DNA of 64,000 bases from Candidatus Magasanikiibacteriota bacterium (GTDB lineage: Bacteria > Patescibacteriota > Patescibacteriia > Magasanikbacterales > GWA2-37-8): assembly GCA_017991415.1 (NCBI GenBank), contig JAGOQR010000002.1, positions 204,736 to 268,735 on the forward strand. The letters are read 5' to 3'. The notes under the pieces are model-generated. The model made no database searches. It had not been told where the DNA came from and saw only the letters and a list, made by a program, of their open reading frames with translations. Within the stretch, counting starts at the first letter, position 1, and each line of letters starts with the position of its first letter. The position numbers and the translations under genes were made by a program. Below, piece after piece: positions 6,725-63,096 of this stretch.

Positions 6725-6766
6725 ATAAATAAAACTCCCTGTAAATTTACAGGGAGTTTTATTTTA
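6725..6766. terminator. Bidirectional terminator hairpin AAAACTCCCTGTAAATTTACAGGGAGTTTT
   Basis: Perfect 12-bp stem flanked by A/T runs, between the DUF285 gene stop and the Calx-beta gene promoter region. Confidence 0.6.
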
Positions 6767-8812: not shown

Positions 8813-8980
8813 ATGTTATAAGTTTATTACCTAAAATTTAGAATTAATTAAAAAAAATATCATGTATAACGTTCCGATACACTAGCATGCATACAAGTTT
8901 TGTCAACTACATGAATAAAAAAAGTATACACAAAAAATCCCCGATATTCTCGGAGATTTTTTGTGTATATATGTTACACG

Positions 8981-15540: not shown

Positions 15541-15552
15541 AAAAATAACAAA

Positions 15553-15590
15553 ATAAAATAACCCCACTTAAAGGGGTTATTTTATTTTGT
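15553..15590. terminator. Rho-independent terminator AAAATAACCCC-ACTTA-AAGGGGTTATTTTATTTT
   Basis: Stem-loop plus T-run immediately after the gyrA stop. Confidence 0.7.
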
Positions 15591-15629
15591 TTGCCTTAAT
15601 CATAAAAATACGATACTATTTATTTATCT

Positions 15630-17132: not shown

Positions 17133-17136
17133 CTTT

Positions 17137-17178
17137 AAAATAAAATAACCCTTTAATATAAAGGGTTATTTTATTTTA
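17137..17178. terminator. Bidirectional terminator AAAATAACCCTTTAATATAAAGGGTTATTTTATTTT between rel(+) and parB(-)
   Basis: Near-perfect palindrome with A/T runs on both sides. Same sequence family as the gyrA terminator. Confidence 0.7.
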
Positions 17179-17184
17179 AATAAA

Positions 17185-18833: not shown

Positions 18834-18930
18834 ACCAAAATAAAAATCTATAACAAATAGTAAAAATATTATACCACAAAGAACAAAAACAAAAAACTCA
18901 CCAATTTTGATAGTGAGTTTTTTAATGTGT

Positions 18931-19011
18931 GCCGAAGGAGAGAATCGAACTCTCATGGATTTCTCCGCACGATTTTGAGTCGTGTGCGTCTACCAATTCC
19001 GCCACTTCGGC
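18931..19011 (-). tRNA. tRNA-Leu (anticodon CAA), type II with a long variable arm
   Basis: Minus strand GCCGAAGTGGCGGAATTGGTAGACGCACACGACTCAAAATCGTGCGGAGAAATCCATGAGAGTTCGATTCTCTCCTTCGGCA. It has a 7-bp acceptor stem, anticodon loop CUCAAAA, a long variable arm and T-loop TTCGATT. No encoded CCA. Confidence 0.85.
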
Positions 19012-19030
19012 TTATTTCTATGTATGTAAA

Positions 19031-19059
19031 ATTATAATCTAGGCTTACTTGTTTGTCAA
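19031..19059 (-). promoter_or_regulatory. Consensus sigma70 promoter TTGACA-17-TATAAT driving tRNA-Leu (and probably parAB)
   Basis: Minus strand TTGACAaacaagtaagcctagatTATAAT, ending ~20 nt upstream of the tRNA 5' end. Confidence 0.7.
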
Positions 19060-19081
19060 TCTAGGGTATAAAAATAATGAA

Positions 19082-19103
19082 CCCAGCGTTGTGACACGCT
19101 GGG
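19082..19103 (-). terminator. GC-rich hairpin CCCAGCGT-TGTGAC-ACGCTGGG followed by a U-rich tract on the minus strand (terminator of the GC-rich island operon)
   Basis: 8-bp perfect stem. The minus-strand downstream sequence is UUCAUUAUUUUUAU. Confidence 0.55.
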
Positions 19104-19175
19104 CAGAACTTCCGCACCTGCAACCAGACCTTGCGATCTCGACCAGGTGACCTTCCCCTCCTTCCGTGCGACTCT

Positions 19176-19523
19176 TCAGCGTCGCTCGCCCAGCGCCTTG
19201 AGCGTCTGGCGAATCGTCTGATGACGACTCGGACTTGAGCTGAGCTTGGCATCTTGAATGGTCTTGGCGACCCCCTCCATGCCAGGACACAGCTCCTGAA
19301 ACCAGTTCGACGCCTCGAAGGCGGCGGCGGCCATCACCTCGTCGGTGTAGGCCAACTGATTCTCCGCCCACTGAGGCAGATGATCGCAGAACACACGAAC
19401 CTTGCTCTGCAGATCTTGGAGCTTGACGAGCTCCGACTGCTGCTTGGCACTGTTGTCGCTGGCGCCCGAAGAGCACGCAGCAACGAGGGACACGATGGCC
19501 GTGACGATGAAGACGGTCTTCAC
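19176..19523 (-). CDS. Small lipoprotein (GC-rich island gene 3), hypothetical
   Basis: Signal peptide plus lipobox (MKTVFIVTAIVSLVAACSSG). A GTG start overlaps the TGA stop of the upstream gene (GTGA). GC3-rich codons. Confidence 0.5.
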   Translation of the reverse strand: MKTVFIVTAIVSLVAACSSGASDNSAKQQSELVKLQDLQSKVRVFCDHLPQWAENQLAYTDEVMAAAAFEASNWFQELCPGMEGVAKTIQDAKLSSSPSRHQTIRQTLKALGERR

Positions 19524-20851
19524 GACTCGTCCTCCCGCTCATTGCCTTCGAGACCCGGAATGACGAACATGCCTCGCATCATCTTCTCCCTCTCCTTCTG
19601 ATCCTTCTTCTTCTGGTCTTCCTTCTTCTGCGAATCGTCCACGAAGTCAGCCAGCTCCTCGTCCCTGCTGTGCTTGAGCTTCACCCACGCATCGCCGGCA
19701 TCGCCGCGCCAGGGGGTCGACGCACTTTCGTTGTCAGCCCCGTAGAACTTGATGACATGGGACACGGACTCCTTACCTCGCTTTGCCTCCATCTCTGCGA
19801 TCGCCATCTTGTGCATGGCGGCGGGGACGAACCTGATGAACCGCAGCGTTTCAGGAGTGGTCCCTTCGGGTGCACCGTTCAACTCGAGCTGAGAACGACG
19901 AGCGACGTAGCCCTCGAGGAGAACCACCATCCGCTCACCCGGCTTGAATTCCACGATTCGGTACTGCCCCATGTCCTCCCCGAACTGCAGGTCCTTCTGA
20001 ACCTCGCCGAGCCGACACGCCTCGAACTGCTCGAGGAGCCACTGCACATTCGAGACGAACGCCTCGATGCTGGTGGTCTGCTTGTCCTGGATCGCCTCCA
20101 AGAAAGCGCGCTTCCAGTTGTGGGTCTTACCTCCGATGCTGTCGAACATGACGCTGATCATGTCGGAGACACCCCCTTCGAGAACATCCAGGTAGACCTG
20201 GCTGTTCTCGGGGTGTTCCCCGTTCGGCAGGCGCACATCGCGCAACTTCGTACGCAACACCTGACCACCGATCGCCACCACCTGCTCCATACCACTCGCA
20301 ACATCCACGATGACCCCGGCAGTCCTGGGCGCGACCGTGGCAATATGCCACGCCTCGCTCTCGAGCGCCTTGGCCCAGGAGGCAACGACCGGCTTGAAGA
20401 ACGCCATACTTCCGAGGAACATCATGTCGGCGAACCCATCGAGCAAGCGCTGCCGATGCATCTTCTCGAGGATCCGACCGATCCGGATGCGCACGAAGGC
20501 CGCGTGCACCCGCTGCCCCAGGAGACCCAACTGCAGGATGATCTTGTCCGTGAGGTTCGCGGCCTGCTCGGCATCGAGCGAACACTCGTCCGTATCACCC
20601 TGCGAGCCGTTGGGACCACAGGGGTCAACCGCATCGACGTAGCCGTCGCCGGTCATCGTGACCTCGCGCGAGCTAGCCGTCACGGGCTGCTTCCTCGGCG
20701 GAAGCCCCTGGGTGAGCGTACGCTTCCCAGGAGCCGACGACGACCGCCGCCGCGCCGAACCACCCGCACCAGCACGGTGCGAGGTGTCGCGAGTAGTGTC
20801 CGCCGCATCATCCGAAGCCGTACCACTGTCCTGAAGCTTGTCGTAGCCCAT
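19520..20851 (-). CDS. Hypothetical ~443-aa protein (GC-rich island gene 2); disordered S/T/G/R-rich N-terminus, KE-rich acidic tail; no recognisable family
   Basis: Long GC3-rich ORF. The most plausible start is ATG at 20851 (MGYDKLQ), preceded by AAGGAAG 7 nt upstream. The track ORF extends to 20938 through the promoter region. No Walker motifs or other signatures recognised. Confidence 0.5.
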   Translation of the reverse strand: MGYDKLQDSGTASDDAADTTRDTSHRAGAGGSARRRSSSAPGKRTLTQGLPPRKQPVTASSREVTMTGDGYVDAVDPCGPNGSQGDTDECSLDAEQAANLTDKIILQLGLLGQRVHAAFVRIRIGRILEKMHRQRLLDGFADMMFLGSMAFFKPVVASWAKALESEAWHIATVAPRTAGVIVDVASGMEQVVAIGGQVLRTKLRDVRLPNGEHPENSQVYLDVLEGGVSDMISVMFDSIGGKTHNWKRAFLEAIQDKQTTSIEAFVSNVQWLLEQFEACRLGEVQKDLQFGEDMGQYRIVEFKPGERMVVLLEGYVARRSQLELNGAPEGTTPETLRFIRFVPAAMHKMAIAEMEAKRGKESVSHVIKFYGADNESASTPWRGDAGDAWVKLKHSRDEELADFVDDSQKKEDQKKKDQKEREKMMRGMFVIPGLEGNEREDES

Positions 20852-20928
20852 GGCACACTTCCTTGGGATGCGACGAAGCACCCCTATTTCACACGGGTTG
20901 GTTTGAACAACTTTGCAAACTAATAGTA

Positions 20929-20957
20929 GTCTTACCACGTTTTACCCATTTTGTCAA
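20929..20957 (-). promoter_or_regulatory. Putative promoter (TTGACAAA -35, TGgTAAGAC extended -10) for island gene 2, located in an AT-rich spacer
   Basis: Minus strand TTGACAaaatgggtaaaacgTGgTAAGAC. The -35 is identical to other host promoters in the window. Confidence 0.35.
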
Positions 20958-21008
20958 TGTAACCACGTCCGATTTAAATTCAAAAAATAAAAATGTATAA
21001 AAAAAATA

Positions 21009-21036
21009 AAGTAGTTTATTATAATAAACTACTTTA
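21009..21036 (-). terminator. Perfect 28-nt AT-rich palindrome AAAGTAGTTTATTATAATAAACTACTTT followed by a U-run on the minus strand (terminator of island gene 1)
   Basis: Stem of ~12 bp. The minus-strand downstream sequence is AUUUUUUUUAUACAUUUUUAUUUUUUG. Confidence 0.55.
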
Positions 21037-21099
21037 TAAAGTCCACGATAACCTCTTGCTTGGCACGCGTCGTGGTTGCACGCGCCAAATTGTTGTCCT

Positions 21100-22104
21100 C
21101 TACACCAAACCAAAGAGCACTGCTGAAGCTAGCGAAGTGACCAGAAGCGCCACGCCAGCGATTAGCACCAACCGATTGAATCGGCTAGGCTGCTCAAGCT
21201 GCTCAACAGGCGCGGGCAAAGTCGGCTCGCAGAGCACATGATCAGGCAACCGCCCTCTCACGCACAGGTAGTGAGCCCCAGCACCGATATGGTGCTGCAT
21301 GTCCACCCAGATGAGCAGAACAAGTTTCCGCAACTTTTCGGGGAAGCGCGGCAATCCATCTCGCCACACATTCGTCTTGGCGAGTGCGTGAAGGCACAGA
21401 TCTTGCCAATTCACCTTCACCACGAGCGAGCCCTCCGAACTATCGTTTACGGTCGTGGTCCAAGCACCGTCTGGCGCCGCTTCATCGAGGAGGCGCTTCA
21501 ATTCCTCGAGAAATCCCAGCCAAGAAAGTTCCAGTGCCACCTGAACGGTTGGCATACTGGCCTCCTTACTTGGCAAGATTGGTATTGCAAACCGCACAGT
21601 CTGCAATGCAAATGCAGGACTGGGAGGCGGCGGCGTTTCAACAAACAGCAGTGTCCTTCGACGGGCGGGCTTGAGATCTTCATCACGAATACGATTCGTA
21701 TGACCCTCATCGTCCAACACCGCTACGACAGCACCGCTGTTCACTGCATCACGAGTATCGTCATCAAAGGAGCCGATGACACCTCCCCCAAGGGAGAGGA
21801 GCTCATCAAGCGACGTGCTATTCGGAGGCCGCAACGGACCACCCGGCGTCGGCGGCAAGCTGCTGGCTTCGGTTGACTCTGCATCAACCTGCATCGGCAC
21901 ATCCTGAACCAATATTTCTGCCGGCACAGGAGTACGAACCGTCTCAGCACCCTCACCAAACGCCTCAGCCCTTTCTCCCAGGGCAGAATCAGGATTTTTC
22001 ACCATGACCATTGCCTCTCTGGGAGATTCCACTGCGCTTGTGGCGCGGTCTCCCAACCTTTTTCCATTGTAAGCTCTTTTCTCTTGGTGCACTTCGCACA
22101 ACAA
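21100..22104 (-). CDS. Hypothetical C-terminally membrane-anchored protein (GC-rich island gene 1); Pro/acidic-rich N-terminal half
   Basis: GC3-rich ORF. The C-terminal 22 residues (LVLIAGVALLVTSLASAVLFGLV) form a TM helix at the extreme C-terminus. The track start is a TTG; an ATG with a GAGAGG SD at ~22017 (MVMVKNPD) is more plausible. No recognisable domain. Confidence 0.45.
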   Translation of the reverse strand: MLCEVHQEKRAYNGKRLGDRATSAVESPREAMVMVKNPDSALGERAEAFGEGAETVRTPVPAEILVQDVPMQVDAESTEASSLPPTPGGPLRPPNSTSLDELLSLGGGVIGSFDDDTRDAVNSGAVVAVLDDEGHTNRIRDEDLKPARRRTLLFVETPPPPSPAFALQTVRFAIPILPSKEASMPTVQVALELSWLGFLEELKRLLDEAAPDGAWTTTVNDSSEGSLVVKVNWQDLCLHALAKTNVWRDGLPRFPEKLRKLVLLIWVDMQHHIGAGAHYLCVRGRLPDHVLCEPTLPAPVEQLEQPSRFNRLVLIAGVALLVTSLASAVLFGLV

Positions 22105-22239: not shown

Positions 22240-23532
22240 CTATGGCTTCAAACGGCCAATCGTTCGAGGGAACGGAATTGCTTCACGAATATGCTCTACT
22301 CCTGTTATCCAACGTACGGTGCGTTCTAGACCAATACCAAAACCAGAATGAGGCACACTACCATACTTACGCAAATCTAAATACCAATCATATTCCGCTT
22401 CGTTTAACCCTTCATGCTTTATTCGTTCTACCAATAAATCAAAATTATCCTCACGCTGACTTCCACCAATCAACTCTCCTGCCCCTTCCGTCGCAATCAG
22501 ATCATCATTTAAAACGAGCTCTGGATTCTGCGGATCACGTTTCATATAAAATGGCTTAATACTCTTTGGCCATTTAGCAATAAAAATAGGCACTTCACTA
22601 TCTTTGGTGAGCAAGCCTTCATCATCATTACCCAGATCTTCTCCGTATTTTATATCCGAACCAAGTTCGTGCAATTTGGCAATTGCTTCGTCATAACTCA
22701 ACCGAGTAAATGGCTTATCAGCTTTTTCAAGAGGTTCCAAATTTCGTTCTAATATTTTTAATTCTTCCTGACAATTGGTAAGGCAATACCGAATAATATA
22801 CCGAACCAACCCTTCTTGGATATTTAAATTTTGCTCGTGCTCTACAAATGCCGCCTCTGCATCCATCATCCAAAATTCTGTAAGATGTCTTTTGGTTTTA
22901 CTTTTTTCTGCTCGAAATACTGGTCCAAAATCATAACAACGGCCTACCGACGCAATCGCTGCTTCTATATAAAGCTGACCAGACTGAGATAAGTAAGCTG
23001 TACCTAAATCAAAATATGGCACCGGGAAGAGGGTGGTAGTGCCTTCGCACGCATTTGGTGTAAACACTGGTGAATCTACTTTGATAAAATGTTCTGTATG
23101 TAAGTATTCGTTAATAGCAGTAATAATTGCATCTCGTACGCGTAATATTGCCCATTGTTTTTTACTTCGCAACCATAGATGTCTATTTTCCATCAAAAAA
23201 TCTGGGCCATGCTCTTTATGGGCAATTGGATATTCTTGAGCCAATTGAATAATAGAAAAACGAGTTACTTGTAATTCAAATACATTTTCTCGCTTTGGAT
23301 GTTTAGCAACCTTACCAGTCACAATCACAGATGTCTCTTGGGTCGCTTTTTCTACCTCTTCCCAAACTGCGGGGTCTAGTTCGGCTTTAGCGGCTACTGC
23401 CTGCACCCAACCAGAACCATCACGCAACTCCAAAAAAGCAATTGGTCCAGAAGAACGTTTATTGTAGAGCCAGCCTTTAATTTCAACTTCTTGGCCGACG
23501 AGTGATGATAAATTTTTAATAAATGTTTGCAT
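22240..23532 (-). CDS. asnS: Asparaginyl-tRNA synthetase
   Basis: 430 aa class II aaRS with an N-terminal OB fold and FRAEKSKTKRHLTEFWMMDAEAAF (AsnRS-type motif 2, EFWM). There is no GAD insertion. Confidence 0.8.
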   Translation of the reverse strand: MQTFIKNLSSLVGQEVEIKGWLYNKRSSGPIAFLELRDGSGWVQAVAAKAELDPAVWEEVEKATQETSVIVTGKVAKHPKRENVFELQVTRFSIIQLAQEYPIAHKEHGPDFLMENRHLWLRSKKQWAILRVRDAIITAINEYLHTEHFIKVDSPVFTPNACEGTTTLFPVPYFDLGTAYLSQSGQLYIEAAIASVGRCYDFGPVFRAEKSKTKRHLTEFWMMDAEAAFVEHEQNLNIQEGLVRYIIRYCLTNCQEELKILERNLEPLEKADKPFTRLSYDEAIAKLHELGSDIKYGEDLGNDDEGLLTKDSEVPIFIAKWPKSIKPFYMKRDPQNPELVLNDDLIATEGAGELIGGSQREDNFDLLVERIKHEGLNEAEYDWYLDLRKYGSVPHSGFGIGLERTVRWITGVEHIREAIPFPRTIGRLKP

Positions 23533-23556: not shown

Positions 23557-24162
23557 TTATCTACCAATCCTATCACTTTCTATAAATTTGGCAAGTTTAA
23601 CACCAGAATGGATTTGAGCAAAATGGTGAGCAAACTCAGAGGCCTCTCGCGTCTGCACCTCGGACAATACAAGACTATTTACACTGCCCCAATCACGTTC
23701 CAGCCAAAATAAATAACGCGGATCCTCTACACTAAACCCCAGATAATGCCATAATTTAAGAATAAAGGCTGTGGCCAAATGGGTAGCATTAATTTTTTCT
23801 GCTGAATCTAAAAATTCAAAAAAACTACGTAAAAAATCAAACACCCTATCGTCACGTTCCCCTACCAAGATATGCTGATGAGCAAGCGTAGCCCCGTAAC
23901 CAGCTAAAAAAATTTTATCCAAATCATTATAAATATTTTTAAAAAATCTGACTGACTGCACTTTGGTAAGATGATTTATCTCTTTACCTTCCGCAACTTC
24001 TATATCAACGACCGAAAAAATCTCTAAATTAGAAGAATTCTTACTCGTAATTTTTTTGATACCTTTGGCAAGGACTTCTATTTTACCTTGACCCAAAACA
24101 AATAACGATACTATCTGATCAAACTCTCTCATATTATGACGAGACAAAACAATAGAGAGCAT
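23557..24162 (-). CDS. recO: DNA repair protein RecO (short form)
   Basis: N-terminal OB-fold pattern VLSRHNMREFDQIVSLFVLGQGKIEVLAKGIKK, typical of RecO; 201 aa. Confidence 0.55.
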   Translation of the reverse strand: MLSIVLSRHNMREFDQIVSLFVLGQGKIEVLAKGIKKITSKNSSNLEIFSVVDIEVAEGKEINHLTKVQSVRFFKNIYNDLDKIFLAGYGATLAHQHILVGERDDRVFDFLRSFFEFLDSAEKINATHLATAFILKLWHYLGFSVEDPRYLFWLERDWGSVNSLVLSEVQTREASEFAHHFAQIHSGVKLAKFIESDRIGR

Positions 24163-24168
24163 ACAAAA

Positions 24169-25407
24169 CTATACAAAAGAAGAAATCACTAAAATAATAG
24201 TGGCCACAATAATACCAATAATAGTAAGCCAAGAAATAACATTACCTATCGGACGATTAATATGTTCGCCCATTATTTTTTTATTATTAATAATCTTCAT
24301 GACAAAAATTAGAATAAATGGCAATAAAATTCCATTTATATCCTGAGACAAAACCATAATTTTAAGCAAAGAAATTTTTGGTACCAACACAAAAATTACT
24401 GGCACTATTATTGAAAATAAAATAATACTATAAAAAATCTTTCCCGTTTGCCAGGTAGTATCAAATCCATATTCCCAACCAAATGCTTCACAAACTGCAT
24501 AGGCGGTAGCTACTGGCAAAATAAAAGCACCAAGCATAGAAGCGCTAAATAAGCCGAACGCAAATAAACCTTGCGCAAAATGACCTGCAATCGGAGCAAG
24601 GCCCATAGCCGCATCTTTGGCATCGGAAATTTTTAGACCATGCTTATAAAAAACAGTGGCTGTGCTAATAATAATAAAGAAACTTACAATATTAGTAATG
24701 AAAGCCCCTGCAAAAACTTCGGCTTTTTCTACCTTATAATGTTTTAGATCCAAACCTTTATCCACCACAAATGATTGAATAAAAAACTGACCCCATGGCG
24801 TTATGGTAGTACCAATAAGCGCTATCATAGCCAGAAGGAACGGAGTATTGAACTCCATAGTTGGATGGACAAAACTTTTGAACGCAGCACCAAAGTCTGG
24901 ATTTACAATAAAACCGTTAATAATATAAACAATATAAAAAGCGGAAAAAATAAGAAAAACCTTTTGAGCTGTTTTAAAAGATCCTTTATAAAGGATTAGC
25001 CAGACGACCAAAGCCGCAATAGACACTGTAATATATTTGCTAATATTAAATATCTCAAAAGACGAAGCAATACCTGCAAATTCAGCAGTTATCGTACCGA
25101 GATTAGCCACAAGCATGGCGAGCATAGCAAAAGCTGTCCATCTCAAACCAAAATTTTCTCTAATTACCCCTCCTAGTCCCTGACGAGTTACTAGTCCAAT
25201 ACGGACTCCCATTTCTTGTGTAATAGCCAAGGACAATGTAATAAGTAACAGAACCCACAGCATTTTAAAGCCAAACTCCGAACCAACCAAAGAATATGTA
25301 CTTATCCCCCCGGCATCATTATCAGCATTCGCTGCAATAATCCCTGGACCAATTACACTAAAAAAGAAAATTACCTTTGGCCAAAAATGTTTCGATTTAG
25401 TAAACAT
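24169..25407 (-). CDS. Nramp/SLC11-family divalent cation transporter with non-canonical metal-site motifs (NRMT-like, possibly Mg2+)
   Basis: GPGIIAANADNDAGGISTYSLVGSEFGFKMLWVLLL aligns with the Nramp TM1 signature [36 protein letters not shown], with DPGN replaced by D-A-G-G. The TM6 motif reads TITPW instead of IMPH. ~11 TM helices; 412 aa. Confidence 0.75.
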   Translation of the reverse strand: MFTKSKHFWPKVIFFFSVIGPGIIAANADNDAGGISTYSLVGSEFGFKMLWVLLLITLSLAITQEMGVRIGLVTRQGLGGVIRENFGLRWTAFAMLAMLVANLGTITAEFAGIASSFEIFNISKYITVSIAALVVWLILYKGSFKTAQKVFLIFSAFYIVYIINGFIVNPDFGAAFKSFVHPTMEFNTPFLLAMIALIGTTITPWGQFFIQSFVVDKGLDLKHYKVEKAEVFAGAFITNIVSFFIIISTATVFYKHGLKISDAKDAAMGLAPIAGHFAQGLFAFGLFSASMLGAFILPVATAYAVCEAFGWEYGFDTTWQTGKIFYSIILFSIIVPVIFVLVPKISLLKIMVLSQDINGILLPFILIFVMKIINNKKIMGEHINRPIGNVISWLTIIGIIVATIILVISSFV

Positions 25408-25425
25408 ACAAAAAACTTATATCGC

Positions 25426-25521
25426 TTTCAAGAAAGTATTAATTTTATTACTGGCCATCGCACCTCCGCAGAGGCGACTGAAAGGAGTCTGGTCAGTAAT
25501 TAAATTAATACTTTCTTGAAA
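25426..25521. repeat. 96-bp element: 31-bp near-perfect inverted repeats flanking a 34-nt GC-rich structured core, in the 120-bp spacer between the MgtE_N/CBS gene and the Nramp gene
   Basis: TTTCAAGAAAGTATTAATTTTATTACTGGCC ... GGTCAGTAATTAAATTAATACTTTCTTGAAA (2 mismatches/31). The core contains CCTCCGCAGAGG and GACTGAAAGGAGTC mini-hairpins. It ends 18 nt before the Nramp ATG. Confidence 0.7.
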
Positions 25522-25527
25522 CTAAAC

Positions 25528-26736
25528 CTACGCATGAGGCACAAAATGCCTCATCACATCATCTACCGTAATTACCCCTAACAATTTTTCTTCCTCATCA
25601 AGTACTGCTAAGGCTGTTAAATTATATTTAGTCATCAAAATCGCAATCTCTGAAACCGTCTGCCCAACCGTAGCTGTTATCTTTTTCTCTACATCGATAA
25701 GCTCTTTCATTGTCTGATTTCTTTCGGAAACAAGCAACTTACGGACAGATACGACACCTTTAAAAAAATTATCCTCATCAGTAACATACACAAAATAAAT
25801 ACCCCGGTGCATATGATACGATTTTTTAATCTCTTCAACAACCTCTTGCACCGTAGTACCAAGAACTGCGGAAATATATTCTGTGGTCATAAGACCTCCA
25901 GCAGTATCTTCGTTATACTCCAAAATAGTTCTTACTTTTTGTTTACTATCAGAAGGTAAATTCTGCATGATTTCTTTGGACTTGTAATCTGGTAACATCT
26001 GAATCAAATCCACCAGCTCATCAATAGACATTTTTTGCATCACACTCGCTGCTCTTTCAGAGCCTAAATTTTGTACCAAAATCTTTTGCAACTCTGGTTC
26101 TAGCTCTTCCAGAACTTGAGCAGCTGTTTTTTTATCTAATACCTGCAATAGCTCGCTACCCTGGTTTAGATTTAATTTTTCAATAATATTTGCAATATCT
26201 GCTGGATGCAATTTAACCAGCTCTTTACCACTCATAGAAAGCTGCAACTTATCACCCAAAAGTTTTACATTCTTCCACTCTAATAATTCGGGCTGTAAAA
26301 AACTAAACAGCTTTGAAGCGCCAAAACCGAGTCGTCGCAACAAACCGAGCTTGCCAATATCAAGCGCCACCAAACACATCAACCCTTTAACCATGCCGAG
26401 CTGAAGATCGTTTACTCGCACCACACGCACACCAGCCATATCTACTATCTGACGATCAAGCACTGTCTCTCGTAAAAAGACCAGCCCCTTCTCATCTGAC
26501 GTCAAAAAAGTAACATCAGAAATAATATTTTTTAATGTTATATAATTTTTACCAAACGTTTCTACCTCGCTCGCATGCACCATTTTTTTGTCCTTACGTT
26601 TATCTACATATTGTATGGCAAATACCGAAGGAAAGCCCTCGTTATTTATTTTGATTACCACATCATGCACCTTACCAATAATTGTATCGGCCTGATCACG
26701 GACTTCGCCTCCTAAAATATTACTAAAAAAAAGCAT
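25528..26736 (-). CDS. Soluble MgtE_N + tandem CBS domain protein (PRC-barrel-like N-terminus), no transmembrane domain
   Basis: MgtE N-domain signature ending ...ILEYNEDTAGGLMTTEYISA (cf. YPEDSAGGIMTTEYV), followed by two CBS domains. There is no C-terminal MgtE TM region; 402 aa. Confidence 0.7.
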   Translation of the reverse strand: MLFFSNILGGEVRDQADTIIGKVHDVVIKINNEGFPSVFAIQYVDKRKDKKMVHASEVETFGKNYITLKNIISDVTFLTSDEKGLVFLRETVLDRQIVDMAGVRVVRVNDLQLGMVKGLMCLVALDIGKLGLLRRLGFGASKLFSFLQPELLEWKNVKLLGDKLQLSMSGKELVKLHPADIANIIEKLNLNQGSELLQVLDKKTAAQVLEELEPELQKILVQNLGSERAASVMQKMSIDELVDLIQMLPDYKSKEIMQNLPSDSKQKVRTILEYNEDTAGGLMTTEYISAVLGTTVQEVVEEIKKSYHMHRGIYFVYVTDEDNFFKGVVSVRKLLVSERNQTMKELIDVEKKITATVGQTVSEIAILMTKYNLTALAVLDEEEKLLGVITVDDVMRHFVPHA

Positions 26737-26762: not shown

Positions 26763-27149
26763 TTATTTAATTTTATCAAAATAACTTTGTAAAATTATCA
26801 TAGCAGATTTTTCATCACGACTCGCCCCTCCACTCATTCTATCACTTGCGTGCGAAGAAAAAATTTCATTAACAAATTCGAGAGGAATACCGATTTCTTT
26901 TTTTAAATCATCAAAAAACTCTGTAACGCGAGCTGTATTTTTATTTTCACTGCCATCTAACCCGAGTGGCAACCCAGCTATTATTTTGTCTATCTTATAT
27001 TCTCGTACTATAGCAGCTATTTTTTTTAATGCTTCGGCATGATTGGTATTATCTACAATACCAAAAGGCACAACAACTGATACAGCAGAATTTGCTTTTG
27101 CAAGGCCAATATTTTTAGTGCCATAATCAATGCCTAACAAATTCAACAT
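26763..27149 (-). CDS. ruvX: Holliday-junction resolvase-like nuclease YqgF/RuvX
   Basis: N-terminal LGIDYGTKNIGLA (RNase H-like YqgF motif); 128 aa. Confidence 0.8.
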   Translation of the reverse strand: MLNLLGIDYGTKNIGLAKANSAVSVVVPFGIVDNTNHAEALKKIAAIVREYKIDKIIAGLPLGLDGSENKNTARVTEFFDDLKKEIGIPLEFVNEIFSSHASDRMSGGASRDEKSAMIILQSYFDKIK

Positions 27150-27159
27150 ACAAATTTTA

Positions 27160-27966
27160 TTATTTTTCGCCTGGTCTTCTGGTAGCTACCACATGTCCAC
27201 TTTTGGTAATAATGATTGTATGCTCAAAATGAGCGCACAACGAACCGTCACTCATTCCAATAGTCCAACCATCATCTGCCGTAGTCACTTTCCACCCGCC
27301 CAAAGAAAGCATTGGCTCTACTGCAATAACCATTCCTGGTTTAAGGATAATATAGTCTAAATTACGATTATAATAATTTGGTATACTTGGCTCTTCATGA
27401 ACTTCATGGCCAACACCATGACCTACCAAATCTCTCACAATTCCATATTTGCCTTGTGATTTTACATACTCCTCTACAGCCTTACCAATATCAGCAACTG
27501 AATTACCAGGCTTAATTGCCCGTATTCCTTCTTCCAAAGATTCTTGCGTTACACGTAATAGCTCTCTCGTTTTAGCTGGAACTTTGCCAATAGGGATAGT
27601 CACTGCTGTATCCGTGTAATAACCTCGGCTCTTACCTTTTACTGGAGCGGGCCATTCCATACCAATATCGATGGTAAAAATATCACCATCTTTCAAGACA
27701 ACACCTTTTTTTGGAATACCGTGCACCAACTCTGTATTTAATGAAGCACAAATAGTGGCTGGAAAAGCAGTGTCTGCAAATCTTGTTTTATGACCTTTAA
27801 AGGCTGGTCTACCACCAGCTTCTATAATCATTTTTTCTGCCATTTTATCTACAGCAATAATTTCTACGCCGGGACGACACATCTTGGCCAGATCTTCTAA
27901 GATTCTGCCCATGATTTCGCCGCCTTCTTTTATCATTTTTATTTCTTCTGGAGTTTTAATTAACAT
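27160..27966 (-). CDS. map: Methionine aminopeptidase type I
   Basis: Pita-bread fold motifs (VCHGIP, HGVGHEVHE, metal-binding D/D/H/E/E); 268 aa. Confidence 0.9.
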   Translation of the reverse strand: MLIKTPEEIKMIKEGGEIMGRILEDLAKMCRPGVEIIAVDKMAEKMIIEAGGRPAFKGHKTRFADTAFPATICASLNTELVHGIPKKGVVLKDGDIFTIDIGMEWPAPVKGKSRGYYTDTAVTIPIGKVPAKTRELLRVTQESLEEGIRAIKPGNSVADIGKAVEEYVKSQGKYGIVRDLVGHGVGHEVHEEPSIPNYYNRNLDYIILKPGMVIAVEPMLSLGGWKVTTADDGWTIGMSDGSLCAHFEHTIIITKSGHVVATRRPGEK

Positions 27967-44824: not shown

Positions 44825-47800
44825 CTAAATACCTATATTCTTTGTCCAACCAAACACAGACTGGAAGTTGTTAATAATAATATCAACGATTGTTTCTTTT
44901 TCTTGAGGAGTAAGTATAGAGAACGTCTCAGATTTTCCAGAATTTCCTGCTAAATCTTTTGATTCAACCCAATATTTATAAACGGTTCCAGGTTTAAATT
45001 TAGTCACTACGATAATATGTCGCGTATTAAGACTTGCATCAAAAGGCAACGAAATAACATTATCACCTGACAAACCTTCTTGATAGAAAACCTGTGAGGT
45101 AGCTGGCTCATCTGTCTCCCAAGAAATAATTGTTTGTACTTTTGAATCCTTACCCGGGTATAATGTTGATTCTGAAGAGAGTTTAGATAATGTTGGACTT
45201 GCTTTATCAAGGGTAGTTGAAAATGTTATTGGTAAGCTTGAAACTGAATTATTAAATTCATCTTTACCCTTAATAACTAACGTATAATTTACACCACCTT
45301 CTAATCCTTTGAGCGTTACCTCATGATTGATTAGTAGAGTTGGCTCTCCCTGAGTTAACGATTGACCTGTCTTAGTATTCTTATACTCAAGCGTACCGTC
45401 GGTCGAAACATTGGTTTTCCAACTTACCGTAATTGATGATTGTAAATCAGAAGGTCTTGTTACACGAATATCAGAAATAACAGGGAGGTCACCAGTGGTT
45501 TGGAATGTAAAATCACCGCTTGATGCTTCTGGACCAATTAAACCTTTAGAAATTACTTTGAAATGATAGACAACAGCTGGATCAAGACCGCTTAATTCTA
45601 CCGTATGATTGAGACTAAATTCATCTGGACTAACCGCTGCATTAGTGTACGGATTGCCACTACCTGGCTTATATTCACTTTCACGTGCATAATTTACCTC
45701 CGAAGAAGATCGCTTATCTGTAGACCATTTAATGATGGCAGTAGTTCCCTTTACCTCTACGGTTGGTTTGATACCCACAATACTTGGAGCTTCTATTACC
45801 TTACTGGTCATTTCAAGAAGCGCCTGAATAAACTTATCTTCTGGAATATCTTTGAGCAATGGATTGGTTGCAATATCATTTAAAAACTTCTCCAAGGATT
45901 TACTTGATGCTTTTTGTAATGCATTTGAAATAAACTGTGACTCTGGTGGTGCACTATCTTCTGGCACATCTTCTGGATTACTGTCTGGAACTGCTTCGGT
46001 GCCATCAATATTAAGGGTTGTGAAACTTCTGTCATCCGATTCAGTACGATTTCCAGAGGCATCATAGGTAACAGCTTTTAGATGGTATGTACGACCAGGT
46101 TCTAAATTTAACAACTTAACAGTATGATTTGTTACGATTAATTCCAAATCATTGCCTACTAAAAATCCATATTGAATATTTTGCCCAAATCGTACCAGCG
46201 AATTACCATCTTCGTTAGTTCGCCAAGAAACACTTGCCGAGCTCGGGGTAATATCAGTTATATCAAGACTAGAAATAATTGGAGGAATTGTATCTGATGT
46301 ATTTGGACGGCTGCCCCCAACTATAATAGTCACAGGCGAACCTGGCGCTTCTAGCGTAGTAAAGCTATAACTAGCACCACTATTATCGTCTGTAGTTATA
46401 TTATTCCCTGAATCAGCAGATCTGACACGGAAATAATACACTGTATTATTTGTTAAACCAGTAATGGTGATAGCGTGAGAAGTTTCAAGAGTAGAGCTTG
46501 AATTAGTGAAGGCAAAGGTGCTTGAAGTTACATCATAGTCAATCTGAGAAGTGGCAGCTTCGTTTGTATTCCATGTAATAATAGCTGAATTATTATTTAC
46601 CAGCGTACTAATATTAGAAATTGTTGGGCCGACTGTATCTGCAATGGTAACAAATGACCAGCCATTACCACTATTATCATCAGTGGCAGAATTGCCAACA
46701 AAATCGGCTGACCGAACTCGGAAATAATAATTAGTATTACCGCTTAAACCAGTGAGTGAAACTGTATGAGAAGTTACAGATTCAGTATTTGACCCAGCTA
46801 AATTAGTGTACGAAGAAGTATTAAGTCCATACTCCACAATTGATGACGCAGGCTCGTTCGTTGTCCATGTAATAGTAGCGCCGACAAGTGAAACACTTGA
46901 AGTAGCTACTGCAGAAATAACAGGGGGCGTACCATCTGCAGCATTTGCGGTGCCAAGCGTATAATCGGCAGAAGAAGCGAGGTTGTTATTTTTATCTTTT
47001 GAATAAATTTTAAAATGATACAGCGTGGAAGAAGATAGTCCTGATAACGTTACCAAGTGCTGCACCGTAAATGTACTATCAAGGGTCGTTGTCGTACCAT
47101 AATCAGTGGTAGGACCATACACAATCTGAGAATCAGCGTTCTCGCTTGTTGTCCATGTAATATTTGCCGAACTATCACTGGTAGTAGTGGCTACAGCTGA
47201 AATAGTTGGCGCGGTGCTGTCTAGAGTGGTAGCAAGATTAAAATACTGGAAACTCCCATTTACTAAATTTTTATCTGTAGATGTTATACCCGACTCATTT
47301 ACTGACTGAACATAAAAATAATAATGTGTTCCTTGTGTAAGGCCTGTTAACGTTACATCATGGAATGTACCAAGCTGCGAAGTGGTGGTGGTAATAGGAT
47401 TTGTTAGTGAAGTAGATGTAGAAAAAACTACGGTACTATCCGAGTTCTCCGAAGTATTCCAAATAACACGAGCAAACGTATTATAGACTTCAACTGCAGA
47501 GACACCAGTGATAGTTGAACCAGCTGGTGTGGTAAATGAGTACCCATCTCCACCATTGTTTGCAGTAGATGATGCGCCGCTTGCAGCAACTGATCGTACG
47601 CTAAAATAATAGGTAGTATTAGGAGAAAGACCACCTAACACTACAGAATGTTGTCCAATAAAACCGGAAGGGTTGTCTACCATCGATGCTACCGTAACAA
47701 CATTGTCGGTAAAATTACCTGGTGTAGTTGAAAAACCAACAATTGAATTAGATAAAATATCTGTATTCCAAGTAATCGTAATTGAGGACGGAGTTGGCGA

Positions 47801-50800
47801 AGAAGTAGCTACGGCAGTTATTGTCGGATCCGTTGCCTGGGCTTCTCCCCCACCACCCTCACCTGCATCTTGAGCACCATTAGCACGACCATTAACAACC
47901 GAAGAAAATACCGAAATATTACCAGCCGAATCAGTTGTTTTTACCTTATAATAATAAAGCGTATCAGGAGTTATCGAGCTATCAGCAGTATAGTTGTCTG
48001 TAATAGATGAACTTGTCGCAATCGGTGTCCAAACAGATTGATCAAGGGATCTATAAATTCTATAATTTGCAAATCCTGGTGTAGGCGCTGTGACAACTTT
48101 CCAAGCTACAAACAAACGATAATCTGTTGCTCCATCTAAAACATTAGAAATATCTTGAACTATAGTACTCGAAGGTGTTTGTGGGGTAGTAGCAGAAGCT
48201 ATGGTTGACGTATTACCATATGCATCTTTAAACTGCACATACACGGTAGATGGATTAGTTGTAAGCGCAAAAGTAGTAGTAGGAGTTAACAGAGACCAAC
48301 TTGATACATCGGATAAAGAACTATTTTCCGAAACTTTCATATATAAAGTAGAGCTATCTACAGCCGTAAGGGTAATAAGCGCTGGCACTTGCGAACCATC
48401 TACTATTATCGTACCTGCAGCAGGAGCCACACTATCTATTTGAAAAGTAGGTGAAGTTGTAGCCGCAGTATTATTTGCAGCTTCATTATCATTTACCGTA
48501 ACGCGTATTCTACTATTTGCGATGCTTAATCCAGCGGGCACATTCCAAGTAACAGTAGAAGTAGTCCAGTTAACTGTACTCACACCAATGTTAGTTGTAG
48601 CGCCAGCAGAAAGTTGGTTAGCAGGTATTGCCTGATACGAACCTGCAGCATCTAGATATTCAAATGTAGAACTTACATAGCCTGGATTGGTAGTGCCAGT
48701 ATCGGTATCTGAATCACGCACTTGGTAAGCGATAGTTACTGTGCCATCCGCATTTTGACTAGCAACAACATTTTGAACTTCTGGGCTTGCATTAACTACA
48801 TAGGTTACCGTAACACTGCTCAAGGTTGGGGTAAATGCAGGGTTTGTAGTGGCAAGATATGCCTTGTATTGAAAATATCTATCACCCGAACCATCACGCA
48901 TAGTCGATGTCGTTGACTCTCCTGTATACGTTGTAAAATAAGTAGAATTAGTGCCATCAGGACCTACCCAAGTAGCAGCGCTCACACTGGATGTGGAAGA
49001 CCCTGTTCGTAATTGAAACTTAATAGTAGTACTTGTTGGCAATCCAGCAGGATTCCAAGCAATACTTGCAACTACATTAGTTGGATCAGCCGCATCATAA
49101 ATAGAAGAAATGAGAGAGCTTGATGTGGCATAGGAAGAATACAAAAGCGTCACGCTATCAAGTGATGGTGAGACACTCGTATCAGCAGTACTTAAAAATG
49201 CTTTATAACGCCAATAGCGTAAATTTTGTTGTAATGAGGTTGGGAAAGAAGTAGTGCCGTTGGTAGTAAAATATGTACCACTTGTCCCATCAGGACCAAC
49301 ATAATTCCATGTACTATTATCATTATTGGCAGCTAATTGAAACCTTATAGAATTTGAACCAACCCCTGACGGTGTTGAACTCGCCCAAGAAAGGGATTTC
49401 ATTCGCGCCGCGCCTAAATCCATAGTAGCCGAAGTAAAATTACCAGAAGAACTATATATGGTTTGACTCACCGTAAATTTGAATAATTCACTGTCATGAT
49501 TAGCAGTTAAAAAATAAAAAACTTCATCGCCAGGTCTTCGAAAAGCTGTTTTGTTTGGTGATCCGTATCCACCGTTATGGCCTGTTACTGTTGAATATGA
49601 AGTCCAACTATCACCACTGATTGAGTACCCCCATACTATGACTGGCGAACAACAACCCCATTCCCCCGTTACATAAATTATATCTTCTCCTGCGCTATGA
49701 ATTAAGGTTGAACCATAATCTGGATTTACAGAAGCTGCACTGGCCATAGTTGCCCACGAATTACCAGTGATTGAATAACGATAAAAACCGTTGTTAGCTA
49801 ACAGATAAATATAGTCACTTCCCTCATCATGAACAACCCCTGAATTTGTACCACTAATAGATACTGGCAAAGAAGCCATTGATGTATAAGAATTCCCAGA
49901 AATAGAGTAGCGATAAAAATTAGTGCCGTTTCCACTGACAATATACATGTAATCACTTGCACCATCTCGAACAACCTGAATGCCTACATCTGCTGCAGCA
50001 GGTAACGAAGTTAAACTATCCCAATTATTACCACTAATTGAATATCGATAAAAATCAGTTTGACCACTCCCTCTAAAAAGATATATATAATCTTCTGAGC
50101 CATAACGCAATGCCGCTGTTTGGGCAATACTGCTTGGAAGCGCAGCAGGAATACTTGCCATCGAAGACCACGAATTTCCAGAAATAGAATACCTATCAAA
50201 AGCAGTACTCTGGCCGCGAGCTAAATATATAAAATTATCAGAACCGTTCCATAGTAACTGACCACCGAAATAAGCCAGAGTATAATTTGAAAGGTTTGTC
50301 CATGAATTTCCAGAAATAGAATAGCGACGTAACGGAGCAGTATCGTTTGAACCTTCAATAACATATAAATAATCTGAACCTGCTGCACCCACCATCTGAG
50401 CTGCACCATGAAAAACCGCACCGCTCGCTGTAGATGTCGCGGTAACTCGATTTATCGTCTGAGTGCTACCTGATAATTTAACAGTGGCTGACAGACCACT
50501 TCCCACAACTGCAGCTGAAGAGACTGCACCGTTACTAAAACCACCGCCCGTGGCACTTCCTGTCGAAGAAAAAGTTCCATCATCAGTAGAGCTATAACTA
50601 CTACTTACAATGGAAACTGTAGTAGTACCTGTAGTAAAGGCATCGGTACTTGTTGAAAAATTAGTCCAGCCTGTTTGGTTGGCAGGATGCTCTATCACGG
50701 TTGTACTGACTCCCCCGCTCCAATCATTTTGCACAAAAGTATAGGTTGCAGCTTGAGCTATTTGCCCAGATTGGGGTTGAAATATATTTACCAAAATAAC

Positions 50801-50826
50801 AAGCAACAAAAACCAGGCCATGGCAG
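44825..50826 (-). CDS. Giant secreted/cell-surface protein (~2000 aa): N-terminal signal/TM, 6-7 Kelch-like beta-propeller blades (YRYSISGNSW repeats), then >10 FN3/purple-acid-phosphatase-N-like domains
   Basis: Repeats YxYSISGNSWxxxxS every ~50 aa, then repeated ITWTTxExAxSxVxYG...HxVxLxGLxxxTxYxFxV units. The likely start is MAWFLLLVILVNIF (ATG ~50826). The track ORF extends to a 51043 start. Confidence 0.7.
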
Positions 50827-51082
50827 GACGAAATTTTTTATTACCAAGTATATGACGAATATGATGTTGAAATCGAAACGAAAAAAACAACCTCTTTAAC
50901 TTTCTCTTAAGAAGAGTGGGATAAAAACTAAAAAATTTTTCTTTTCGCATATACCCAAAAAATGGAAGGAAAAAAATTACCTTGGCTTCAGCACAACTCT
51001 TATATTTATTTGATATTATTATACCATAAAAAACTGCAACCAACTACTTACAAACACCGATGTGGATAATTTTTAGGCAACT

Positions 51083-51116
51083 AAAAAACCAACAAGGTTT
51101 TCTTGTTGGTTTTTTA
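51083..51116. terminator. Bidirectional terminator AAAAAACCAACAAG-GTTTTC-CTTGTTGGTTTTTT after fusA
   Basis: Perfect 8-bp stem flanked by A6/T7 runs. Confidence 0.7.
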
Positions 51117-51128
51117 GTTAGAAGATTA

Positions 51129-58897: not shown

Positions 58898-60067
<1,170 letters not shown>

Positions 60068-60069
60068 TA

Positions 60070-60096
60070 AAAAATCCCCCTTCGGGGATTTTTTAT
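60070..60096 (+). terminator. tgt terminator AAAAATCCCC-TTCG-GGGGATTTTTT
   Basis: Perfect stem plus T-run 2 nt after the tgt stop. Confidence 0.75.
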
Positions 60097-60130
60097 TAGC
60101 TAAAATAAGCAAAATTTTAATAGCCTACCC

Positions 60131-60488: not shown

Positions 60489-60965
60489 ATGATCCATATA
60501 CATCTTATTATTTTGGGAAAACTCAAAGAAAAATTCTGGCAAGAAGCCGAAGCTGAATATCTAAAACGTTTACAGCCGTGGGCAAAAATTACTATATACG
60601 AACTAAAGGAAGAATCTTTTTCTGAAAAAAATAATCCAGAACAAATCAAACAAAAAGAAGCAAATAAAATTTTGGGTGCTGTTCATAAAATAAAAGCCAG
60701 CTACACCATTATTTTGGACGAACATGGTAAGCAATTTTCTTCGGTTAACTTGGCGCAACAACTCAAACAAATTTCGGATACTACTCACAACCTTACATTT
60801 ATCCTTGGCGGACCACTTGGATTGCACGAAAGCATTTTAAAACAAGCAAACTTAAAACTCTCTCTTTCGTCACTAACCTTTACCCACCAAATGGCGCGTG
60901 TATTTTTATGGGAACAAATCTACCGAGCCATGACAATTATAAGCGGCAAAAAATATCATTATTAA
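60489..60965 (+). CDS. rlmH: 23S rRNA (pseudouridine1915-N3)-methyltransferase RlmH (SPOUT)
   Basis: MIHIHLIILGKLKEKFWQEAEAEYLKRL...ILDEHGKQFSSVNLAQ...FILGGPLGL. The start is set at ATG 60489. The track ORF begins inside the GC-rich element. Confidence 0.85.
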   Translation: MIHIHLIILGKLKEKFWQEAEAEYLKRLQPWAKITIYELKEESFSEKNNPEQIKQKEANKILGAVHKIKASYTIILDEHGKQFSSVNLAQQLKQISDTTHNLTFILGGPLGLHESILKQANLKLSLSSLTFTHQMARVFLWEQIYRAMTIISGKKYHY

Positions 60966-60972
60966 ACAAATA

Positions 60973-60999
60973 AAAAAAGAGCGTATACGCTCTTTTTTT
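60973..60999. terminator. Bidirectional terminator AAAAAAAGAGCGTATACGCTCTTTTTTT
   Basis: Perfect palindrome after the rlmH stop. Confidence 0.75.
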
Positions 61000-61091
61000 A
61001 TTTGTTCTATGTACCACGCACCCTGTGATATATACAATCAAAGCGGAAACAGCTTGCAAGCAAACCGCCTCACGCACCTAACTACCACTAT

Positions 61092-63084: not shown

Positions 63085-63096
63085 ACCTAAGCACTA

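Follow-up and report, generated by a model that had tools for sequence, protein, structure and literature searches.

A probable magnesium-uptake gene pair in a Candidatus Magasanikbacteria genome, with what is very likely a dispersed hairpin element between its two genes

Organization of the locus

The window, that is, the whole 64-kb stretch of DNA that we analysed, comes from a Candidatus Magasanikbacteria (Patescibacteria) genome and contains a tightly packed run of co-directional genes in the order map, ruvX, sensor, nrmT, recO and asnS. The sensor-like gene, nrmT and a hairpin located between them all lie on the minus strand, and the two genes are 120 nt apart. The features considered here are the following:

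24169-25407, minus strand: nrmT, 412 aa, predicted Nramp-related Mg2+/Mn2+ transporter, NRMT clade of SLC11
25408-25527, minus strand: spacer between the sensor-like gene and nrmT, 120 nt
25408-25425, minus strand: A/U-rich stretch before the nrmT AUG, 18 nt, GCGAUAUAAGUUUUUUGU (read from the sequence)
25426-25521, minus strand: structured intercistronic element, 96 nt (inverted repeat, RNA fold, covariance model R1)
25528-26736, minus strand: sensor-like gene, 402 aa, soluble protein with a PRC-barrel region, MgtE_N and a CBS pair
26239-26736, minus strand: PRC-barrel-like beta-rich region of the sensor, aa 1-166 (Pfam PRC, AF2 strands)
25906-26211, minus strand: MgtE_N domain of the sensor, aa 176-277 (Pfam PF03448, E 5.4e-27, full profile 1-102)
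25543-25890, minus strand: CBS pair of the sensor, aa about 283-398 (Pfam CBS, PF00571, E 8e-17, two stretches)

An earlier note on this DNA had described the transporter gene, the sensor gene and the 96-nt hairpin, and we recovered every one of these features, on the minus strand.

The nrmT product is an NRMT

The nrmT protein matches the Pfam Nramp family (E 9e-86) and aligns over its full length, without gaps, with EleNRMT (7qia; residues 11-408, E 1.4e-107), with 44% identity over 398 residues. The best canonical Nramp reached only E 2.9e-22, the others being weaker, so that the comparison suggested in the earlier note places the protein far closer to EleNRMT. The same note had given a motif pattern typical of NRMTs and had located the substitutions at metal-site positions; the alignment agrees with the first statement and is exact on the second, as D55, G58, T224, A227 and W229 of EleNRMT correspond to D31, G34, T200, T203 and W205 of nrmT.

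In alpha-1, the motif reads N-D-A-G-G (residues 30-34): the metal-binding Asp is kept (D31) and the Asn of the DPGN signature is replaced by Gly (G34). The alpha-6 motif, G-T-T-I-T-P-W (residues 199-205), departs from Nramps at several positions: Thr replaces Ala (T200, the counterpart of EleNRMT T224), the soft-ligand Met gives way to a small non-sulfur residue (T203), and both His of the alpha-6b proton pathway are absent, W205 and I210 standing at the positions of EleNRMT W229 and N234. The remaining site residues, E109 and Q355, are kept like D31. EleNRMT (7qia/7qic; PMC8806188) thus resembles the nrmT product in its N-D-A-G-G motif, its Mg2+-ligating alpha-6 Thr, the His-to-Trp change, the absence of the second His and the conserved alpha-10 Gln, but has Ala at the Met position where nrmT has T203. 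Thr at this position is found in 35 of 35 Patescibacteria copies, and across 150 family representatives (50% identity) TxxTPW is about as frequent as TxxAPW. Judged from its sequence, the nrmT product is a clear NRMT with every NRMT site change present.

EleNRMT, from Eggerthella lenta, carries Mg2+ and Mn2+ and excludes Ca2+, without H+ coupling (Ramanadane et al. 2022, PMC8806188). By homology, the nrmT product would be an importer of Mg2+ (and Mn2+), with the ion still partly hydrated; import would again be free of proton coupling, with the membrane potential as driving force.

The upstream gene encodes an MgtE cytosolic part

The earlier note described the upstream protein as the cytosolic part of an MgtE channel devoid of a pore, and Pfam, NCBIfam, the match to a known structure and the predicted fold all agree. 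The protein resembles the cytosolic domain of Thermus thermophilus MgtE (2yvy) both by sequence (E 1.4e-33) and by Foldseek (E 2e-19), and MgtE cytosolic domains are the top Foldseek matches of its AF2 model. This model was built with an alignment and has a pLDDT of 81.7 (a single-sequence model only reached 42). The sensor has no match to the MgtE pore family and stops near T. thermophilus residue 256. YNEDTAGGLMTTEY forms the linker between the N domain and the CBS pair, and a conserved C-terminal tail, RHFVPHA, follows the latter. A Candidatus Magasanikbacteria MAG encodes a protein with 100% identity to it.

As to the individual domains listed in the note, MgtE_N and the two CBS domains stand, while the PRC barrel is borderline in this 402-aa protein (E 0.001, under the Pfam cutoff) and firmer across the family, where 39 of 51 members match Pfam PRC, with a best E of 6.7e-9. 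The model has strands at residues 11-68 and 85-166, and the best PDB profile match of the region is weak (MTH1895, 1pm3, E 0.16).

Which of the MgtE magnesium sites are retained? D239 and D243 of the sensor correspond to MgtE D91 and D95, and D393 to D247; all three are invariant in 51 homologues, as are P400 and A402 in the tail. The ligands of sites Mg4 (D91/D247) and Mg6 (D95) are therefore kept. Sites Mg5 (D226/D250, here N372/R396) and Mg7 (E59, here Q207) are not conserved, and the plug-helix sites Mg2 and Mg3 are missing. T. thermophilus MgtE (2yvy, 2yvx) thus shares with the sensor the N domain, the CBS pair and the Mg4/Mg6 ligands, but differs by its plug helix and transmembrane pore, by its Mg5/Mg7 ligands and by the lack of a PRC-barrel region.

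This soluble MgtE half may act as a cytosolic sensor of Mg2+, and possibly also of a nucleotide. We infer that binding of Mg2+ at the N/CBS interface would let it close around the ion, after which it would dock on the NRMT and inhibit it. A brake of this kind is suggested because an uncoupled uniporter needs one; we give this role of the MgtE-like protein about an even chance.

A gene pair described in 2014

The two genes were adjacent in every relative examined, in line with the neighbourhood check proposed in the note: nrmT is directly downstream of the sensor gene in 33 of 33 Patescibacteria loci where both could be scored. The pairing of nrmT with an upstream gene for an MgtE cytoplasmic domain was published by Shin et al. 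in 2014 (PLoS Genet, PMC4072509), who already speculated about cytoplasmic feedback regulation by the MgtE-like fragment. Neither the pairing nor the idea of regulation by a sensor is new, both dating from that work, and the pair is very probably the known NRMT/MgtE-fragment module. Like our sensor, the published fragments, among them Acp2976 of Acidobacterium capsulatum (PMC4072509), are separate proteins encoded directly upstream of nrmT, co-directional, with the MgtE N and CBS domains as their only MgtE part. The Patescibacteria sensor has an N-terminal PRC-barrel-like region of ~166 aa, in which it may differ from the published MgtE-like protein, termed 'small' (PMC4072509). Another difference concerns CabNRMT (Shin et al. 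2014), which has an M-box riboswitch upstream, while the nrmT of this window has none.

For the gene pair itself, our analysis adds little beyond extending the 2014 observation to the Candidate Phyla Radiation. There, the module lies among core housekeeping genes, and it may be a main route of Mg2+ entry in a reduced genome. The Patescibacteria sensor, with its invariant Mg4/Mg6 ligands, PRC-barrel region and conserved tail, would also make a compact test system for the role of the MgtE-like partner.

Is magnesium the main substrate? The A. capsulatum NrmT, whose neighbour is MgtE-like, fully rescued a defect in Mn2+, whereas it took millimolar Mg2+ for a Mg2+ defect to be rescued, and co-expression of the MgtE-like fragment had no detectable effect (PMC4072509). 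Given this mainly Mn2+ rescue and the null result with the fragment, the Mg2+ specificity of nrmT and the function of the sensor are putative. The transporter might then import mainly Mn2+, or a broader range of divalent metals, and its partner sense something other than Mg2+. The transport of Mn2+ by EleNRMT as well (PMC8806188), the Thr of nrmT at the Met position where EleNRMT has Ala and the lack of an M-box match at the locus in Rfam would fit this, as would the binding of ATP by MgtE CBS domains (PMC5529423). However, T200 is conserved, and mutation of its EleNRMT equivalent, T224, which is critical for Mg2+, abolishes Mg2+ transport and spares that of Mn2+ (PMC8806188); G34 and the signature of a widened site are preserved, the sensor shows no variation in its Mg4 and Mg6 ligands, and a Thr in TxxTPW is too common in the family to single out this protein. 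A primarily Mn2+-importing system is thus improbable, and we retain magnesium uptake as the likely function of the pair.

The hairpin between the two genes

The note's element of 96 bp, with inverted repeats and a GC-rich core, is present at 25426-25521. Its arms (25426-25457 and 25490-25521) are 32 nt each, 94% complementary and 32 nt apart, and form a long, A/U-rich stem. The 32-nt core (25458-25489) is G+C-rich and has CCAGAC and GGUGCGAUGG as conserved junctions and a P3 hairpin. As sense-strand RNA, the spacer has a folding energy of -45.2 kcal/mol (z = -5.8), a value that 0 of 200 shuffles reach. The score of the hairpin under covariance model R1 is 91.7 bits for the gene strand, against 51.3 bits for the opposite one. 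A scan of the 64-kb window with R1 retrieves this one copy, and the arm sequence has no second occurrence in the window.

In a search of the whole window at gathering threshold, Rfam detected a tRNA alone, neither the M-box nor another riboswitch being found. In E-value mode, the spacer gave only sub-threshold, stem-driven matches, mostly to plant and animal miRNA precursors. A rho-independent terminator, with a G+C-rich stem running straight into a U tract, can be rejected: no such site was called in 25408-25527, and the 3' arm is followed by GCGAUAUAAG. A promoter within the spacer was rejected as well, the single sigma-70-like match (9/12) being placed such that transcription would begin inside the ORF. 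A TIGR-Tas array was also considered and rejected, as there is one hairpin here and no array, and no candidate Tas gene stood out among the neighbouring genes.

The hairpin does end 18 nt before the nrmT ATG, as the note had it, and the position of the only sigma-70-like match bears out its remark that the spacer has no room for a promoter. Expression of nrmT probably relies on a polycistronic RNA that is read through or processed. Any intercistronic insert would entail as much, and a magnesium-specific mechanism is not indicated. The 18-nt stretch itself is the native initiation region of nrmT, since hairpin-less relatives (L008 and L009, for example) likewise have a U-rich tract ahead of the AUG.

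Hairpin copies in related genomes

R1 identified extra copies in two relatives only, at L001:3368-3476 (between map and ruvX), L001:7199-7307 (between recO and asnS) and L006:1638-1739 (between adk and map), all of them in the orientation of the flanking genes. L037 has three copies within 21 kb, and L038 two within 16 kb. Neither the larger flanks of four relatives nor the whole window with filters off yielded any new full copy. The family core is a three-way junction made of CCARAY, a variable P2, a G+C-rich P3 with a tetraloop, and GUGCGAUGG; beneath it lies a double-stranded stem of 25-30 bp. This core is conserved across a divergence of the sensor down to 52% (L030).

Over 13 copies, pairing holds in 93.4% of cells, and covariation in the long stem is strong, with double changes at 24 of 34 pairs, although covariation counts are inflated by the shared ancestry of the copies; 0 of 500 shuffles reach the observed level, and slid controls pair at 42-54%. 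The sense strand has 22 G.U cells against 7 A.C cells, and one G.U, in P3, is conserved. Pairing in the outer arms is Watson-Crick almost throughout. Within L037 and within L038, paralogous copies have identical cores and wholly different outer arms.

Could the hairpin be a dedicated RNA element for control or processing, such as a new Mg2+ riboswitch or a binding site for the sensor protein? Its location exactly between the two genes, with no room for a promoter, is suggestive, its conserved non-helical core (CCARAY and the second junction) could bind a ligand or a protein, and M-box riboswitches control other nrmT operons (PMC4072509). The spacer between the sensor gene and nrmT is also the most frequent site of the hairpin (10 of 13 unique copies), an excess that is a sampling artefact, every locus having been fetched via the sensor gene. 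The occurrence of near-identical cores at the map/ruvX, recO/asnS and adk/map junctions, that is, between unrelated housekeeping genes, speaks against the note's view of a hairpin dedicated to this pair, as does the failure of Rfam to match any riboswitch, M-box included. Its view of an RNA control element of a Mg2+ unit fares no better: many relatives of similar divergence, among them L004, L005, L008-L010 and L012, keep the pair with a spacer of 0-26 nt and no hairpin. Moreover, with its ~30 bp the stem exceeds the stability compatible with ligand-driven switching. We regard a dedicated element as very improbable. Most probably, the hairpin is a generic RNA structure of intercistronic spacers, absent from Rfam, and in all likelihood one copy of a generic dispersed family, which would have spread among the spacers of this neighbourhood in one Magasanikbacteria subclade. 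With a probability of roughly 0.7, we thus interpret the locus as a housekeeping two-gene magnesium-uptake module from which the hairpin stands apart.

Functional RNA or neutral palindrome?

ERIC/IRU and REP/BIME elements in enterobacteria and Correia/NEMIS elements in Neisseria are intercistronic hairpins of ~100 nt transcribed within operons. Our family resembles REP and ERIC in having several copies per genome and in its presence or absence at orthologous spacers. It differs from ERIC, REP and Correia in its very low copy number (1-3 per 16-64 kb sampled), its three-way-junction core with conserved junction nucleotides and in that no target-site duplication was seen. The conservation of the core together with locus-specific outer arms is the reverse of the MITE pattern.

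Alternatively, the hairpin could be neutral or selfish DNA, a palindrome like REP, ERIC or a MITE that does nothing for the cell. DNA-level processes, for example template switching or gene conversion, would then preserve and lengthen its perfect arms. The patchy presence at orthologous sites, the multiplication within L037 and L038 with identical cores, the near-perfect Watson-Crick outer arms and the existence of other palindrome families in these genomes (L040) are all consistent with this. On the other hand, all copies are oriented with the flanking genes, G.U is favoured over A.C on the sense strand and a G.U is conserved in P3, the core persists to the sensor divergence seen in L030, and the copies show no conserved terminal inverted repeats, no target-site duplication (flanks by inspection) and no transposase nearby. 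We consider a selfish or neutral palindrome rather unlikely, although the perfect, locus-specific arms could reflect template switching at the DNA level instead of selection on RNA.

Under the preferred reading of a generic intercistronic RNA, the hairpin would be transcribed inside the polycistronic mRNA, the sense RNA forming a long stem capped by the three-way junction. The element would interrupt the tight translational coupling that relatives without it show, and its stem may offer a double-stranded site for processing of the RNase III type or stabilize the 3' end of the upstream message. An uncoupling or RNase III role is tentative, at clearly less than even odds, and RNase III cleavage is something we purely infer. 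It is also possible, if doubtful, that these hairpins form an undescribed functional family in Magasanikbacteria-like Patescibacteria that punctuates housekeeping operons and has the unusual property of gaining arms that are locus-specific yet perfectly paired; a protein-recognized RNase III site, for example, would then set the relative expression of neighbouring cistrons. If functional, the family would count as a new and small class of RNA elements between cistrons, in a phylum that has been little studied. The repeat family is the sole modestly novel part of the locus, and it carries a warning, as a striking structure between functionally linked genes can be a generic repeat.

Two further candidates were rejected. 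A small peptide starting at the AUG of GCGAUGG would have 12 to 45 codons, its start is AUU in two paralogues, and it shows no conservation beyond the constraint of the stem itself. Viral copies were suggested by a 22-base gapped core pattern in two IMG/VR contigs; both fall within ORFs and the model recognizes neither of them, which marks them as chance hits. The wider scans also picked up simple A/T-armed hairpins with the same score on either strand, and other, unrelated families of intercistronic palindromes exist in these genomes, for example the GAACUGN-repeat hairpins of L040.

The NRMT-sensor gene pair

The genes map, ruvX, sensor, nrmT, recO and asnS form a co-directional run in this order (the sensor and nrmT ORFs are taken from the ORF listing).

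27160-27966, same direction as sensor and nrmT, map
26763-27149, same direction as sensor and nrmT, ruvX
25528-26736, minus strand, sensor, 402-aa ORF
between the two ORFs, sensor-nrmT spacer, 120 nt
24169-25407, minus strand, nrmT, 412-aa ORF
23557-24162, same direction as sensor and nrmT, recO
22240-23532, same direction as sensor and nrmT, asnS

The remaining spacers of the run measure 10, 26, 6 and 24 nt, against 120 nt between sensor and nrmT. All the features named in the earlier note are there.

The 412-aa protein matches the Pfam Nramp family (E = 9e-86) and scores far under the cutoffs of the NCBIfam MntH models. Of the PDB sequences, by far the strongest match is to EleNRMT, the Nramp-related Mg2+ transporter of Eggerthella lenta (7qia; E = 1.4e-107, ungapped over residues 11-408, 44% identity across 398 residues), while canonical Nramps reach 2.9e-22 or weaker. 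Since the offset between the two proteins is a constant 24 residues, the published site residues of EleNRMT (PMC8806188) could be transferred directly by alignment: D55, G58, E133, T224, W229 and Q379 correspond to D31, G34, E109, T200, W205 and Q355, A227 (the Met position) to T203, and N234 to I210. The NRMT motif given in the earlier note is thus correct, and the substitutions do sit on the metal site. For the NRMT family, Thr is an ordinary residue at the Met position: GTTITPW occurs in 35 of 35 Patescibacteria NRMT copies from the fetched loci, and TxxAPW and TxxTPW are about equally frequent among 150 cluster representatives (clustered at 50% identity). EleNRMT transports Mg2+ and Mn2+, not Ca2+, without H+ coupling, and its T224A mutation abolishes Mg2+ transport (PMC8806188). 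From its family, the window's NRMT would be an uncoupled Mg2+/Mn2+ uniporter, with uptake driven by the membrane potential.

In the sensor, an MgtE_N domain (residues 176-277, E = 5e-27) is joined by two CBS domains; the Pfam search found no pore domain. The cytosolic domain of Thermus thermophilus MgtE aligns with it (E = 1.4e-33), and MgtE cytosolic domains are the top Foldseek matches of its AlphaFold model (pLDDT 81.7, from an alignment with 51 homologues). Residues 1-166 are beta-rich, and the PRC-barrel Pfam model matches 39 of 51 sensor-family members. The whole protein is 100% identical to that of a Candidatus Magasanikbacteria MAG. We mapped the regulatory Mg2+ ligands of MgtE (PMC5882242) through the T. 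thermophilus alignment. The Mg4 ligands D91/D247 and the Mg6 ligand D95 align with D239, D393 and D243, none of which varies across the 51 homologues; the Mg5 ligands D226/D250 are replaced by N372/R396 and the Mg7 ligand E59 by Q207, and the plug-helix sites of MgtE are missing. [quoted passage not shown] By family, the soluble sensor would bind cytosolic Mg2+ where its N domain meets the CBS pair, and would restrain NRMT. Its C-terminal tail MRHFVPHA (residues 395-402, window 25528-25551) is conserved, with P400 and A402 invariant in the 51 homologues, and is a candidate point of contact with the transporter.

According to Shin et al. [quoted passage not shown] In the same study A. capsulatum NrmT acted mainly as a Mn2+ transporter, and co-expression of the MgtE fragment had no measurable effect. 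The pair described in the earlier note also stands as neighbours in relatives, nrmT lying directly downstream of sensor in all 33 Patescibacteria loci where both were scorable (sensor identity 48-80%), and closer relatives retain the order ruvX-sensor-nrmT-recO. The pair is therefore a further example of an already known arrangement.

Close relatives fall into two groups by the identity of their NRMT to that of the window, 84-89% or 67-73%, and this identity does not track the flanking genes (loci L001/L037, L006/L038, L008, L011/L039 and L025, compared with L003, L004, L007, L021 and others; paired handles denote the same relative). In L001, map, ruvX, sensor and recO are the most similar to those of the window, yet its NRMT is just 67% identical, below those of far more distant genomes (74-77%). 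These identities suggest that nrmT alone underwent allele replacement or accelerated evolution.

A small family of intercistronic elements

The sensor-nrmT spacer contains two inverted arms (25426-25457 and 25490-25521) of 32 nt each, 94% complementary and 32 nt apart, whose sequence occurs only once in the window. The fold of the spacer as sense RNA has an energy of -45.2 kcal/mol, compared with -24.6 for shuffled sequences (z = -5.8). In eight relatives (L001, L003, L006, L007, L011, L020, L021, L023) the orthologous spacer is 120-137 nt long and shares this architecture, and L030 has a divergent form.

Parts of the element
Outer A/U-rich stem, sequence not conserved
AAUUUU...AAAAUU segment, conserved
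Inner helix, ending in CC...GG
5' junction, CCARAY
P2 hairpin, variable, lacking in the window copy
P3 hairpin, G+C-rich, with a tetraloop
3' junction, (G/A)UGCGAU(G/U)G

In the 13 unique element copies, pairing holds in 93.4% of cells, and 24 of the 34 pairs have changed on both sides; none of 500 shuffles matches this pairing and covariation, and slid controls pair at 42-54%. The gene-strand cells, which are not independent events, hold 22 G.U against 7 A.C, an excess that favours folding as sense RNA. Paralogous copies within a genome (L037:9368-9476 and L037:13199-13307; L038:4833-4934 and L038:7414-7516) are nearly identical in the inner helix and P3, while their outer arms are unrelated, each perfectly self-complementary.

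Is this element dedicated to the Mg2+ unit, as the earlier note proposed? Its distribution argues against it. A covariance model of 10 copies, run over 262 kb made up of the window plus 35 loci, found three further copies outside sensor|nrmT, all oriented as their flanking genes.

L001:3368-3476, map|ruvX, 71.7 bits
L001:7199-7307, recO|asnS, 63 bits
L006:1638-1739, adk|map, 82.9 bits

In addition, relatives of similar divergence (L004, L005, L008, L009, L010, L012, L025-L029) and all more distant ones lack the element, with sensor|nrmT spacers of just 0-26 nt apart from that of L014, a more distant relative, where an unrelated hairpin rich in G+C and about 56 nt in length (L014:4213-4274, CCCCCTCC...GGGGGAGG) takes its place. 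No further full copies were found in the larger flanks of four relatives or, with filters off, in the full window; the family is small, with one member in the window.

Other readings of the spacer were discarded. No terminator-like site was found in it; a single weak match resembling a promoter would initiate within the ORF. A peptide starting at the element's conserved AUG was not supported, and a scan of viral contigs gave two chance matches and no others.

Rfam searches of the window and the spacer gave no match to the element, M-box included. The family is thus undescribed in Rfam, its locus-specific, perfect outer arms are an odd property, and it is the sole modestly novel part of the locus. 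The hairpin would be transcribed as part of the operon mRNA, where it would interrupt the tight stop-start coupling present in element-free relatives; its long double-stranded stem may serve as a site for RNase III-type processing or protect the upstream 3' end. Given its conserved core, the element may have a protein partner.

Other repeats and features

Since unrelated intercistronic hairpins are also present in these genomes, structured inserts between cistrons seem generally habitual in this clade. In the relative L040, three ribosomal-protein-operon spacers (L040:2376-2455, L040:2828-2901, L040:6572-6666) carry hairpins of tandem GAACUGN-type heptamers, a separate intercistronic repeat family within this clade. 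The window itself has many perfect intergenic hairpins of 15-22 bp, in which a G+C core separates a 5' A-tract arm from a 3' T-tract arm (17133-17181, 15546-15592, 60965-61006, 51080-51118, 6729-6762, 8925-8969, 63096-63134, 60065-60098). Their scores are equal on the two strands, and they resemble bidirectional terminators.

A 3-kb G+C-rich island (19000-22100, 54-61% GC against about 38% around it) directly adjoins tRNA-Leu(CAA) at 18929-19011. Its long ORFs (19520-20938, 21100-22104 and 19045-19542, all on the minus strand) have no Pfam match, and the island looks like foreign DNA integrated at a tRNA gene. By far the largest ORF of the window encodes 2072 aa (44825-51043, minus strand).
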